Shown here: piece after piece, positions 24,975 through 31,602 of the stretch
Layout of the letters: each line of letters begins with the position of its first letter
Position numbering within the stretch: the stretch's first letter is position 1
Source of the DNA: Carcharhinus amblyrhynchos
Lineage: Eukaryota
Length of the DNA stretch: 64,000 bases
Direction of reading: 5' to 3'
Assembly: GCA_965287045.1 (NCBI GenBank)
Contig: OZ336893.1
Span: forward strand, 3,348,001-3,412,000
The notes under the pieces: model-generated
Told to the model about the DNA's origin: nothing
Seen by the model: the letters and a program-made list of their open reading frames with translations, nothing else
The model's database searches: none
Translations under genes and position numbers: made by a program

Positions 24975-25376
24975 CTCATGGGTTTGTATTCGTTGGAGTT
25001 TAGAAGGATGAGGGTGGCTCTTATAGAGACATATAAGATAATGAAGGGGATGGATAGGGTAGAGGTAGAGAGATTCTTCCCACTTAGAAAGGATAGCAGG
25101 ACTAGAGGGCACAGCCTCAAGATAAGGGGGGGTCTTCTTCACTCAAAGGGTGATGAGTCTCTGGAATTCTCTGCCCGTTGAAGTGGTGGAGGCTACCTCG
25201 CTAAATATATTTAAGTCACAGGTAGATAGGTTTTTGATAGACAAGAATTAAGGGTTATGGGAGAAAGCGGGAAAGTGGAACTGAGCCACTTCAGATCAGC
25301 CATGATCTTATTGAATGGCGGGGCAGGCTCGAAGGGCTAGATGGCCTACTCCTGCTCCTATTTCTTATGTTCTTAG
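24975..25376 (+). mobile_element. CR1 (family A) 3' fragment
   Basis: GLYSLEFRRMR..LIETYKIM and family A tail; ~290 bp from the exon at 25666. Confidence 0.92.
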
Positions 25377-25665
25377 AAATGGGGTCTTTATAAATTTTGA
25401 GCCATTCTAAGGGACCCTGGAGTAAGGCAATTAGGTATAAACATTACTCTTGAAATCAATCTGATCGGTTTCAAATGAATATTGAGGAATTTTAATTAAC
25501 AGAATTACAAACGAGAAAATAAACTTTACAGACAGTAAAAAGATAGTTGACAGGTGCAGTGTAGTGGTCATTTCAAATGTGACATTCAATATCACAAAAT
25601 AAAGTGCAAGCTAAACAAAATAAAATATGTCACATTACAGTAAAAACACAAAAGTCAATACCTAC

Positions 25666-25751
25666 CCAGCTCGCTGCTTTTTGGACTTATCTGAAATTCC
25701 ATCACGGGACATAAGTTTGTTGAATACTATGATCCCAATGAGCATGTTTAC
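25666..25751 (-). CDS. ADGRB2: ADGRB coding exon, TM5-ICL3: [28 protein letters not shown](G)
   Basis: 86-nt exon, acceptor tttacaag|GTAAAC, donor GCTGG|gtaggt. As I recall the paralogs, [23 protein letters not shown] is diagnostic of BAI2 rather than BAI1 or BAI3. Confidence 0.93.
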
Positions 25752-26352: not shown

Positions 26353-26855
26353 AAATTATTTTTGAGCTCCATAAATTGAGAGGTTTCACAGATGGTGTTT
26401 ATATAAAATTGGTGGTTTATTGATCAACTACTTTGAATCAAATTGATAAAATAATAATTAAAATATTTGTCCACATTCTCAAAGACCAGTTAGTTCTAAA
26501 AGATCCTAATGGAGGTAGTCTGACTTCCTTTTGTTGCCTTGTGTATCAGTATGCTAAAGAACTGCTAGTAAATTTCCTCTGGTCAATAACCTATGCTTTT
26601 TTAACATGTTTGTTCAAAATACAGAACGCAAGAATTGCTTAATAGAAATACTGATAAAGCAACACATATTCATTTGTGTATAAATGAATCCAGAAAAGCC
26701 AACAGTTGACAAAATTTGGGGATCAGAAACTCAGAGTTAATAACTTGTTCCTACAATTTCCAAAATAAAGCAAGTGCAAAGCACAGATTTCTATAAACGA
26801 TCTCCATGACTTATGGCATGCATCCATGTAAAACTGTTAATATTCAGTTACATGA

Positions 26856-27112
26856 TCTGGAGATGCCGGTGTTGAACTGGGGTAAACACAGTAAAAAGTC
26901 TCACAACACCAGGTTAAAGTCCAACAGGTTTATTTGGTAGGAAAAGCCACTAGCTTTCTGAGTGCTTGCTGCCCTTTCAGCAGGTGAGTGGGAGTTCTAT
27001 TCACAAACAAGGCACTCACCTGACGAAGGGGCAGCAAGTGCCTCGAAAGCTACTGGCTTTTGCTGCCAAATAAACCTGTTGGACTTTAACCTGGTGTTGT
27101 GAGACTTCTTAC
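26856..27112. mobile_element. Palindromic Penelope-type non-autonomous element with hammerhead motifs and 17-bp TSD
   Basis: 100-bp inverted arms at 26891-26990 and 27013-27112; TSD aatattcagttacatga at 26839-26855 and 27113-27129. Confidence 0.85.
27013..27057 (+). ncRNA. Minimal hammerhead ribozyme motif (Penelope type), activity unproven
   Basis: cac-CTGACGA-a-ggggc/gcctc stem II-GAAA-gc-TA; palindromic AGCT helix III; one mismatch in stem I (ctg instead of gtg). Confidence 0.6.
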
Positions 27113-27175
27113 AATATTCAGTTACATGACATTTGTCCAAGTCATGTAACATGCATCATTAAAAATACAATTTAC

Positions 27176-27242
27176 CAATACAATGATTGCAGCCGGTCCA
27201 ACAAATGCGTAAAGGAGGCCTCCTTCCAAAGACAACCAGCAG
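27176..27242 (-). CDS. ADGRB2: ADGRB coding exon, ECL2-TM5: [22 protein letters not shown]
   Basis: 67-nt exon, acceptor tgtttccag|C TGC TGG, donor GTATTG|gtaaat. [18 protein letters not shown] is the invariant BAI motif. Confidence 0.93.
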
Positions 27243-28827
27243 CTGGAAACAAGCAAAAAACATAATCAGTTTCAAAGGAACATATCTGTTATTGATAAAA
27301 AGCAAAAAACGGTGTTTTATTAAACTGTAAAGAGAAACATGAGGGATATGGGTTGACTCCCAAGTCCCTTTCTTCATTTCATTAGAGGGCATTGTTTCCT
27401 GCTCGGTAATCCACTCCCTTTGGAAAAAAAACTGAAATGCCATTTGCCTTCTCAATCTATGCTGTATCTGCTAACTTGCTGTGATCCTTGTACATGCCCA
27501 CCCAAGTATCTCTAAACATCACCACTGATAAGTTCATGACTTGTAAAAAGTATTCATTTTTCTATCCTTACTACCAAAATGAATAATCTCATGCTTGCCC
27601 ACAATATATTCTGTCACCTTGTTGTCCATCTATCAACATCCTCTGTCAGCCTCTTTTTGTCCTAGCTTTTCATGAACACCTTTAGGTATATTGCTCTCAA
27701 TTTCTCTTTCACAGCTGAAGCCCCAGCACTCATCCTTGTGACCTAGTTATATCCAGCCAATTTGAAAATGCCACAATGTGCCTGTACTTTGTTTGCTGTC
27801 CATTAAATAATCATCCACCCATGCTAATATATTGGCTTATCTCCGGAAGCCCTTATTTTACATACTAATCTTTTGTGCGACAATTTATCAAACTCCTTTT
27901 GGAAACTGACATATATTGTGTCCACTGATTCCCATTTATCTACTCTATTAGTAACAAGAATCACAGAGTGTAGATTTGACCAATCAAATTTACACTGACA
28001 CATCAGAACCACCTGACCTACTTACCTAATCCCATTTACCAGCATTTAGTCCATAATCCTGAATGTTATGATGTATCAAGTGCTTGTCCAAATACTTTTT
28101 AAAGAATGTGAGACAAATGACCATCACCCTCACAGGGAATACATTTCAGACCATCACCACCCTCTGGGTGAAAGAAGATTTTCTTCACATCCCCCTAAAC
28201 CCCCTGCCCCTACTTTTAACCTGTGTCCCCTCATGACTGATCCTTCAACTACAGGAAGAATGCCGCCATGTCCATGTCCCTCATAATCTTGTACACCTTG
28301 ATCAGATCGCCTCTCAGTCTATTCTGCTCCATCAAAAACAACCCAAGCCTATCCAACCTCTCTTCATAACTTAAACATTTCATCCCAGACAACATCCTGG
28401 TGAATCTTCTTTGCAGCGCCTACAATGCAATCACATCTTTCCTATAATGTGGTGACCAGAACTGCACACAGTACTCCAGCTTTGGCCTCAGCAAAGTTCT
28501 ATACATAAGAAAGTAAGAACTAGGTCTGCTCTCCCATTCAACAAGATCATGGCTGATCTTTTCGTGGACTCAACTCCACTTATTCTTCTGCTCACCATAA
28601 CCCTTAATTCCTTTACTGTTCAAAAATTCATCCATCTTTGCCTTAAAAACATTTAGCAAGGTAGCATCAACTGCTTCACTGGACAGGGAATTCCACAGAT
28701 TCACAGCCCTTTGTGTGAAGATGTTCCTCCTCAACTCAGTCCTAAATATGCTCCCCCCTATTTTGAGGCCATGCTCCCTAGTTCTAGTTTCACCCGCCAC
28801 TGGAAACAACCTCCTTGCTTCTATCTT

Positions 28828-31602
28828 ATAAGAACATAAGAAATAGGAGCAGGAGTAGGCCATCTAGCCCTCAAGCCTGCTCCGCCATTCAATAAGATCA
28901 TGGCTGATCTGATAGTGGTTCAATTCCACTTACCCGTCTGCTCCCCATAAATCCTTAATTCCCTTATTGGTCAAAAATCTATCAGTGATTTAAACACATT
29001 TAACGAGTTTCTTTACTGCTTCAATGGGCAGAGAATTCCAAAGATTTACTACCCTCTGGGAGAAGAAGTTCCTCCTCAACTCTGTTCTAAATTGACTCCC
29101 CTGTATTTTGAGGCTGTGCCCCCTAGTTCTTGTTTCCATTTTAAGTGGAAATAACCTCGCTGCTTCTACCCTGTCTAGCCCCTTCATTATCTTATATATC
29201 TCTGTAAGATCGCCCCTCAACCTTCTAAACTCCAATGAGAACAAGCCTAGTCTACTCAATCTCTCCTCATAAGTTAACCTCCTCATCTCCGGAATCAACC
29301 TGGTGAACCTTCTCTGCACCCCCTCCAAAGCCAATATATCCTTTCTTAAATAAAGGGACCAAAATTGTACACAGTACTCCAGATGTGGCCTCACCAGTAC
29401 CATGTACAATTGCAGCAAGACCTCCCTGCTTTCACACTCCATCCCTCTTGTGATAAAGGCCAACATTCCATTTGCCTTCTTGATCACCTGCTGCACCTGC
29501 AAACTGAGCTTTTGTGATTCATGCACAAGGACCCCAAGGCTCCTCTGCACAGTAGCATGTTGTAATTTTTCACCATTTAAATAATAGTCTATTTTACTAT
29601 TATTCCTTCTAAAGTGGCTAACCTCACATTTACCAATGTTATACTCCATCTGCCAGATTCTTGCCCATTCACTTAGCCTATCCAAATCTCTCTGCAGACT
29701 TTCTGTGTCCTCCACACAATTTGCTTTCCCACTCATCTTTGTGTCATCAGCAAACTTTGTTACCCTACACTCAGTACCCTCCTCCAGATCGTCTATGTAT
29801 ATGGTAAACAGTTAAGGCCCCAGCACCGATCCCTGTGGCATGCCATTTGTTACCGTCTGCTAACCGGAAAAACACCCATTTATTCTGACTCTCTGCTTTC
29901 TGTTAGATAGCCAATCCTCAATCCACACTAACACTTTACCCCCAACTCCGTGGACCTTTATTTTATGCAGCAACCTTTTGTGAGGCACCTTATTGAATGC
30001 CTTCTGGAAATCTAAATATACCACATCTACCAGTTCCTCTCTGTCAACTGCACTTGTTATATCTTCATAAAATTCCAGTAAATTCGTCAAACATGACTAC
30101 CCTTCATGAATCCATGCTGTGTCTGCTTGACTGAAGCATTCTTTTCCAGGTGTCCTGCTATTTCTTCCTTATTGATGGATTCCAGCATTTTCCCAACTAT
30201 GGATGTTAAGCTAACCGGCCTGTAGTTATCTGCCTTTTGTCTACCTCCTTTTTTAAATCGTGGCATTATATTAGCTGTTTTTCAATCAGCTGGCACCTCC
30301 CCAGAGTCCAGTGAATTTTGATAAATTACAACGAATGCATCTGCTATTACTTCTGCCGTTTCTTTTAGTACCCTGGGATGCATTCCATCCGGACCCGGGG
30401 ACTTGTCTACCTTTAGTCCCAATAGCCTACCCAGCACTACCTCTTTAGTAATAGTGATCGTTTTAAGGTCCTCACCCGCTACAGTCCCATGATTGTCAAT
30501 TATCGTATGCTATTTGTGTCCTCCACTGTGAAGACCAACACAAAAAAACTTGTTTAAGGCCTTGGCCATTTCATTGTTTCCCATTATTAAATCCCCCTTC
30601 TCATCTTCTCAGGGCCCAACATTTACTTTAGCCACTCTTTTCCATTTTATATTTTATATATCCATTTGTAAAAACTTCTCCTATCAGTTTTTGTGCTATC
30701 ATATTTTGTGCTAGTTTACTTTCATAACCTGTCTTTCCTTTCTTTATTGCTTTCTTAGCCGTTCTTTGTTGTTTTTTAAAGCTTTCCCAATCTTCTCGTT
30801 CCCCACTAATTTTGGCCACTCTGTATGCATTGGTTTTTAATTTAATACTCCCCTTTATTTCCTTAATTATTCATGGCTGGTTATCCCTTTTCTTACATTC
30901 CTTCTTTTTCACTAGAATATATTTTTGCTGAGTACTGAGAAAAATCTCCTTAAAAATCCTGCACTGTTCCTCAACTGTCCTACCATCTAATCTGCGTTCC
31001 CAGTCTACATTAGCCAACTCCACCCTCATCCTATTGTACTCCCCCTTGTTCAAGCAGAGGACACTGGTTTGGGACCCTACTTTCTCACCCTCCATCTGTA
31101 TTAGAAATTCAACCATATTGTGACCACTCATTCCAAGTGGTTCCCTCACAAGGAGATCATTAATTTTACCTGTCTCATTACACAGGACCAGATCTAAAAT
31201 AGATCGCTCCCTCATAGTTTCCTCGAACAGTATATTACAGAACCTATCTCAACAGCATTCTAAGAACTCTTCGAGTCCACTGCGTCCGACTTGAGTTGAC
31301 CAATCAATATGAAAGTTAAAATCCCCCATGATTCCGTTTTTACACGCATCTGTTATTTGTTTGTTTATAGCCCGCCCCACCTCAAGGTTATTATTTGGGG
31401 GCCTATAGACTACTCCCACCAGTGACTTTTTCTCCTTACTATTCCTTATCTCCACCCACATTGATTCCACATTTTACTCCTTAACGCCTATATCGTTTCT
31501 CACTAAAGCCCTACTCTTATCCTTAATTAACAGAGCCACCCCACCTCCTTTTCCTTCCTGTCTATCCTTCCGAATTGTCTGATACCCCTGGATATTCAAT
31601 TC
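28828..31602 (-). mobile_element. CR1 LINE ORF2 (APE + RT) with stops and frameshifts
   Basis: ORFs 31249-31470 (VYRPP, MGDFN), 30871-31215, 29860-30090 (DFQKAF) and 28990-29736; (cttatgtt) tail. Confidence 0.93.

Follow-up and report, generated by a model that had tools for sequence, protein, structure and literature searches.

A decayed inverted Penelope-like insertion carrying two hammerhead motifs in an intron of shark ADGRB2

Introduction

An intron of a shark adhesion receptor gene carries, close to a splice donor, a palindromic insert with a hammerhead ribozyme core on each strand. How was such an insert made, does it move as a unit of its own, and could its ribozymes cut the receptor pre-mRNA? 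The preliminary description of the locus saw in it a tiny, non-coding, ribozyme-bearing mobile unit whose gene-sense ribozyme had been disabled by selection. Palindromes of related origin are already known. Inverted 5′-truncated copies with a one-sided tail of 30–40 bp have been described (PMC8557442, PMC3846280), and in Schistosoma hammerhead pairs lie on opposite strands 100–700 bp apart (PMC4209133). Minimal hammerheads of Penelope-like elements (PLEs) cleave weakly, as dimers (PMC4209133). In the in vitro system of the Anolis element PAc both DNA strands are cut and extended, and the Anolis hammerhead cleaves only with protein and is dispensable for insertion (PMC11167929).

We have analysed the insert in its window (the whole stretch of 64,000 nucleotides examined here) and its relatives in the shark genome. 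The insert is very probably the dead, 5′-truncated, head-to-head 3′ end of an endonuclease-bearing Penelope-like element, likely made in one event in which both ends of a staggered cut served as primers; its hammerheads are predicted to be folded shut.

Results

Anatomy of the insert

The insert measures 257 bp and lies in a region of 291 nt bounded by two identical direct repeats (26839–27129; Table 1). The layout given earlier stands: a leader of 35 nt (26856–26890) is followed by two inverted arms of 100 nt (26891–26990 and 27013–27112) with a loop of 22 nt between them. The arms mismatch at 12 of 100 positions, i.e. they are 88% complementary. A single one of these mismatches falls in the outer 47 nt (26891–26937 against 27066–27112) and 11 in the hammerhead region, with four at CpG. 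Compared with the family, the leader reads as the known one-sided Penelope tail. The perfect 17-bp target-site duplication of the preliminary description was correct only in part. The 17-nt repeats are indeed identical, but the left repeat shares its final 5 nt with the end of the family's tail, so the duplication comes to 12 nt plus 5 nt of microhomology with the tail.

Table 1. Features of the insert and of the neighbouring ADGRB2 exons (window positions).
Feature	Position	Strand	Basis or remark
Left 17-nt direct repeat	26839..26855		~12-nt target duplication; 26851-26855 also form the Penelope tail end
Right 17-nt direct repeat	27113..27129		identical to the left copy
Penelope tail (3′ extension of about 37-40 nt, on a single arm only)	26851..26890	-	family comparison; PMC8557442, PMC11167929
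Tail-bearing arm, 3′ end of the Penelope terminal repeat, through the 22-nt loop	26891..27014	-	93% identity over 157 nt to L031
Tail-less arm: the terminal repeat again, with a shorter 3′ end at the family's second end site	27013..27112	+	
Inversion junction, arms overlapping by 2 nt; genome-unique	27013..27014		
Decayed minimal hammerhead in gene sense: A6>C, no 10.1-11.1 pair, closing pair of stem II disrupted	26948..26986	-	
Minimal hammerhead in antisense to the gene, with an intact core and a disrupted helix I pair beside the cleavage site	27017..27055	+	
AATAAA of the element in gene sense, in a paired part of the predicted hairpin	26929..26934	-	sequence and fold
Cryptic splice donor CAG/GTGAGT, consensus-like, on the pre-mRNA strand; predicted paired in the hairpin	27014..27022	-	
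ADGRB2 7TM exon, upstream of the insert	27176..27242	-	protein mapping
Next ADGRB2 exon	25665..25751	-	named protein matches and catshark mapping

The arms belong to an endonuclease-bearing Penelope-like family

Searching the 2.9-Gb genome with the 257-bp insert gave 5,402 candidates, and among the 40 scored many match over the whole length at 76–88%. Exact matches of the tail-junction 31-mer number at least 9,618 genome-wide. A pattern requiring both outer arms 125–155 nt apart yields 406 exact palindromes, and the intact-core pattern for the loop subfamily of the window copy 193 matches. One relative, L031, matches the tail arm and loop at 93% identity and is contiguous with a broken frame of GIY-YIG-type coding sequence. 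Its peptide is 84% identical to a stop-free frame of 829 aa in a second copy (L126:2820-5309, G000:C5). This frame matches reverse transcriptase (PF00078, E 1.4e-9) and holds the motifs DKG, YIDD, CX4CX2C and IVYL..YIG; a hammerhead arm lies about 140 nt past it. Pfam searches of the L031 fragments and the L126 frame returned RT only and no GIY-YIG match, and the endonuclease is called by its motifs. L126 represents another subfamily, 73–87% identical to the window arm, and genome searches found no intact master of the window copy's own subfamily. Arm-like sequence is present at all 30 loci matched by the protein search. Together with L031 and L126 this identifies both arms, at the level of sequence, as the terminal repeat at the 3′ end of an abundant Penelope-like family with RT and GIY-YIG. 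An element of this kind sharing the arm sequence had been postulated from the insert, and it has been found, with its RT recognised by profile and its endonuclease by motifs.

As to the type of the element, the CX2-5CxxC linker of Neptune, which is shared with Nematis, is present (CHSNLCKTC at 668 of the L126 frame), and by this linker the family would be of the Neptune or Nematis type (PMC8557442). Two other loci of the family deserve mention. The 829-aa frame of L126 is inserted into another LINE, and a short palindromic stump lies at L126:974-1232. L129 (G000:C1004:500-9500) is a tandem array of ~2.0-2.3-kb units with Penelope 3′ ends at 2201, 4155, 6321 and 8589, each consisting of an endonuclease piece, a hammerhead and a tail.

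The insert itself shows the features of Penelope-like insertions: an inverted 5′-truncated head-to-head copy, a tail at one end and a target duplication. In the head-to-head truncated layout, the 30–40-bp tail at one end and the target duplication it resembles the inverted-pLTR-plus-tail insertions of endonuclease-bearing PLEs (Craig et al. 2021, PMC8557442; Adineta Pen2a/Pen2, PMC3846280). The duplication is 8–10 bp in Adineta (PMC3846280), whereas its median is 12 here. Unlike the elements in the parts of PMC8557442 and PMC3846280 available to us, both halves here consist of terminal repeat only, without coding sequence.

Hammerhead motifs and the predicted fold

The core strings quoted earlier for both arms read as claimed. 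The motif of the family is like the minimal hammerheads of metazoan PLEs (Cervera and De la Pena 2014, PMC4209133) in the CUGANGA and GAAA cores, the extra base between positions 9 and 10.1, the G10.1–C11.1 pair, the palindromic helix III and the short helix I. The conserved cores, the bulged base, G10.1–C11.1 and the palindromic helix III recur in the family, in agreement with the Penelope-type assignment of the preliminary description, and CUGANGA/GAAA is the majority state in 100 arms. In 85 arms stem II covaries: one pair is A-U in 44, G-U in 20 and G-C in 19, the next G-C in 59 and A-U in 11. An Rfam scan at E≤10 gave no hammerhead match, and the hammerhead call draws on motif, covariation and literature. 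A literature search for a shark Penelope hammerhead family found none, and supplements may hold shark hammerheads.

One lesion per arm had been counted. This holds for the plus arm, where a helix I pair is broken and the core is intact among 5 changes from the family majority. It does not hold for the minus (gene-sense) arm, whose 7 changes include A6>C, replacement of G10.1–C11.1 by A-A and a broken closing pair of stem II. Neither arm of the window copy has both core and helices intact. In this decay of both hammerheads the window copy differs from the minimal hammerheads of PMC4209133.

Regarding the fold, the hairpin has a z of −18.8 on the plus and −19.8 on the minus strand, and 0 of 200 shuffles were as stable. 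The long hairpin proposed for the receptor pre-mRNA is thus borne out as a prediction. In the model, forcing the ribozyme fold within the hairpin costs 26.4 kcal/mol (plus) or 35.9 kcal/mol (minus), and a transcript cut just after the cleavage site would already fold as hairpin. On either strand the complementary arm would be transcribed first and would capture the hammerhead as it emerges. Both ribozymes are predicted to be buried in the hairpin, and cleavage seems unlikely with or without the lesions.

Palindromic copies in the shark genome

The shark genome holds hundreds to thousands of such palindromic stumps. Fifty of them, the first 50 of the 406 (contigs C1–C3), were chosen by outer-arm sequence only; the choice required two exact 17-mers and favours younger copies. 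The tail is on exactly one arm in 48 of these palindromes, on neither in two and on both in none. Tail-less arms end mostly at +21 to +24 (30/50) and tail arms at +57 to +62 (35/50). A clear target duplication accompanies 33 of the 50 copies, and in these its median length is 12 nt. By a crude extension against 10 reference copies, with unexplained inserts at many junctions, the tail arm is longer in 15 copies, the tail-less arm in 23, and 12 are level; by the same crude extension 49 distinct pairs of arm endpoints occur among the 50. Outside this sample, in the near set, L007 (G000:C15:25314212-25314484) has a tail on both arms and is an exception to the one-tail rule.

The junction 24-mer of the window copy occurs a single time in the genome. 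In other copies the inner spacing varies between 26 and 845 nt, in some leaving no room for a hammerhead, and inverted multi-kb copies with coding sequence occur. The best reading is that Penelope RNA gave rise to each palindrome anew.

Subfamily haplotypes differ between the two arms in three of 35 copies (L060, by six characters, L052 and L071) and in L024 of the near set. Over the 35 copies the discordant diagnostic characters average 0.97 per copy against 3.37 in random pairs (minimum 2.51 in 5,000 shuffles), and this mean is close to what a 7% arm–arm mutation background would yield over 11 characters.

Lesions were counted in 85 arms, after 15 of the 100 had been dropped where a junction or deletion cuts the hammerhead. 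A core lesion is present in 51 of the 85 (60%), mostly at the CpG sites G12 (25) and G8 (16). Among the 35 copies with two whole arms, seven are free of lesions, 18 have one lesioned arm and 10 have two. Changes at A6 are rare (2/85 arms, both A>G, with further ones at L033, L039 and L041). Core sites outside CpG are slightly less changed than the flanks (23/680 vs 102/2035, p = 0.09).

Host gene and age of the insertion

The insert sits in ADGRB2, which runs on the minus strand. The best named matches of the downstream exon are almost all ADGRB2, and a catshark ADGRB2 protein maps onto four exons within the window; the downstream exon found nothing above 0.9 in the protein atlas. The insert-bearing intron (27175–25752) is 1,424 nt long. 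Its donor GT stands at 27175. From there it is 63 nt to the end of the insert, in line with the distance of about 60 nt reported before, and 46 nt to the outer repeat. The cryptic donor of the insert is nearer to consensus than the real ADGRB2 donor, TTG/GTAAAT, which lies 156 nt upstream of it. Such a CAG/GTGAGT donor, the reverse complement of the hammerhead 5′ side, is offered on both strands by every palindromic copy of the family. Decayed LINE reverse transcriptase fragments, which by their motifs we take to be CR1/L2-like, are found near exons at 25002–25248 and 27827–28863.

Three DNA runs (organisms C, D and E) yield contigs that lead from the unique flank through the left repeat into the leader as far as 26887. 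On the other side, contigs from the same runs pass from 27090 through the right repeat into the flank; the contigs break inside the arms. On the left flank side 4, 12 and 10 letters differ in about 487 (organisms C, D and E, respectively). A further run, X1, which may be DNA, covers only parts of the repeat and part of the exon, and another, X3, may derive from the source of the window itself. Among the runs listed as containing the locus, none was identified as RNA. No empty site was seen in the sequencing runs examined. Since both edges of the insert are present in C, D and E, the insertion is shared with these organisms and predates their splits.

Discussion

How the palindrome was made

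In the window copy one arm reaches the tail site, whereas its partner stops about 37 nt short of it. The copy has a junction and arm lengths of its own, and each arm has decayed by ~6% since insertion. That the insertion was target-primed, as proposed earlier, we judge to be right, with the 17-nt repeat resolved as above. We infer that priming was two-ended. The GIY-YIG domain of the element would have cut both strands ~12 nt apart. One 3′ end would have primed at the tail site with the help of 5 nt of microhomology and the other at the inner site, and both cDNAs would have been aborted just past the hammerhead and joined at the 2-nt overlap. The strict one-tail rule, the two fixed end sites and the finding that either arm may be longer support such priming. 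It is also favoured by the two-strand extension and the predicted dimer described for PAc in vitro (PMC11167929), and in PAc, as in our family, the tail is delimited by two sites of RT initiation (Frangieh et al. 2024, PMC11167929). Note that PAc belongs to the Poseidon clade (PMC11167929), whereas the shark family has the CX4CX2C linker of the Neptune or Nematis type.

The main alternative is that a single cDNA folded over and served as its own template, i.e. the self-priming proposed for rotifer Penelope elements in PMC3846280. It would account for the low discordance between the arms of a copy relative to random pairs, for rare variants that are often common to both arms, and, in the window, for the longer tail arm (92 vs 68) and the 2-nt overlap, which a tail-primed strand predicts. 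However, either arm may be the longer one among the palindromes, and the tail-less arm stops at a fixed inner site that corresponds to one of the two places where initiation was seen in vitro (PMC11167929). In a few copies, moreover, the arms are of different subfamilies. We therefore regard fold-back as rather unlikely, though it keeps some weight.

Evidence in the family for two templates is modest, and one-arm gene conversion is an alternative explanation for L060, L052, L071 and L024. For the window copy two templates were considered because its tail arm shares two variants with L031. This was rejected: the two variants are found together in 15 of the 9,618 matches against about 6 expected (marginals 3 and 2 in 100) and also in unrelated subfamilies, so recurrent mutation is the best reading.

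Returning to two-ended priming, the palindromes taken together are, on weak evidence, compatible with it, at times from two RNAs. We propose, tentatively and with slightly less than even confidence, that the palindromic stumps are a natural record of a dimeric enzyme that starts synthesis on both sides of a single cut, invariably with the tail site used on one side and the inner site on the other, and at least sometimes with two different RNAs. If this is true, dimer priming of both ends would replace the published self-priming model. Our literature search found no application of twin priming to Penelope elements; supplements may hold integration models.

Ribozyme decay and the receptor gene

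The preliminary description explained the gene-sense core change by selection against cutting of the ADGRB2 pre-mRNA. Several points would agree with this: the core change is in the gene-sense arm, which is also the more changed one (7 vs 5), A6 is seldom changed in the family, and presence of the insert in the runs of three other organisms implies that it is fixed. Decay alone, however, produces the same picture readily. With 60% of arms lesioned in the core and 18 of 35 copies lesioned in exactly one arm, the combination of a hit sense arm and an intact antisense arm arises by chance in about a quarter of copies, and with 7 changes per 100 nt a hit among 11 core positions is expected in about half of cases, as simple arithmetic shows. 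In addition, a hammerhead of this kind requires dimer formation, and its cleavage is poor or depends on protein (PMC4209133, PMC11167929), and in the hairpin, where the ribozyme would be buried, its fold would cost 26–36 kcal/mol on either strand. Selection is thus very unlikely. Where an arm is captured by its complement during transcription, A6>C would be neutral decay. If the insert affects ADGRB2 at all, the cryptic donor, the poly(A) hexamer or the long double-stranded stem near the donor is a likelier cause than ribozyme cleavage. The cryptic donor, if used, would add a stop codon.

Not a mobile unit of its own

That the 257-bp unit moves whole, as a SINE or a retrozyme does, is hardly credible: many copies of similar length match all of it and bear target duplications, but this size class was selected by the query itself, and the once-occurring junction, the endpoint pairs differing in 49 of 50 copies, the spacings of 26–845 nt (some leaving out the ribozyme), the multi-kb inverted copies with coding sequence and the lack of a tandem array of the unit at the locus all speak against the tiny mobile unit first suggested. 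More specifically, SINE- or MITE-like elements would show multiple copies of one internal structure, and here the junction and nearly all endpoint pairs are private. The insert is like non-LTR retrozymes (PMC7229834; bioRxiv 10.64898/2026.07.22.740005) in being short, non-coding, PLE-derived and equipped with a type I hammerhead. Retrozymes as presented in the accessible parts of these sources are head-to-tail tandem units, each with a hammerhead, whereas the window holds a single head-to-head pair.

Conclusions

The locus is a real but ordinary decayed Penelope stump and follows a known insertion pattern. For the question of how Penelope elements make inverted one-tailed insertions the family may matter a little: a genome with hundreds to thousands of palindromes permits a counting test, in which so far 48 of 50 are one-tailed and a few have arms of mixed subfamily.
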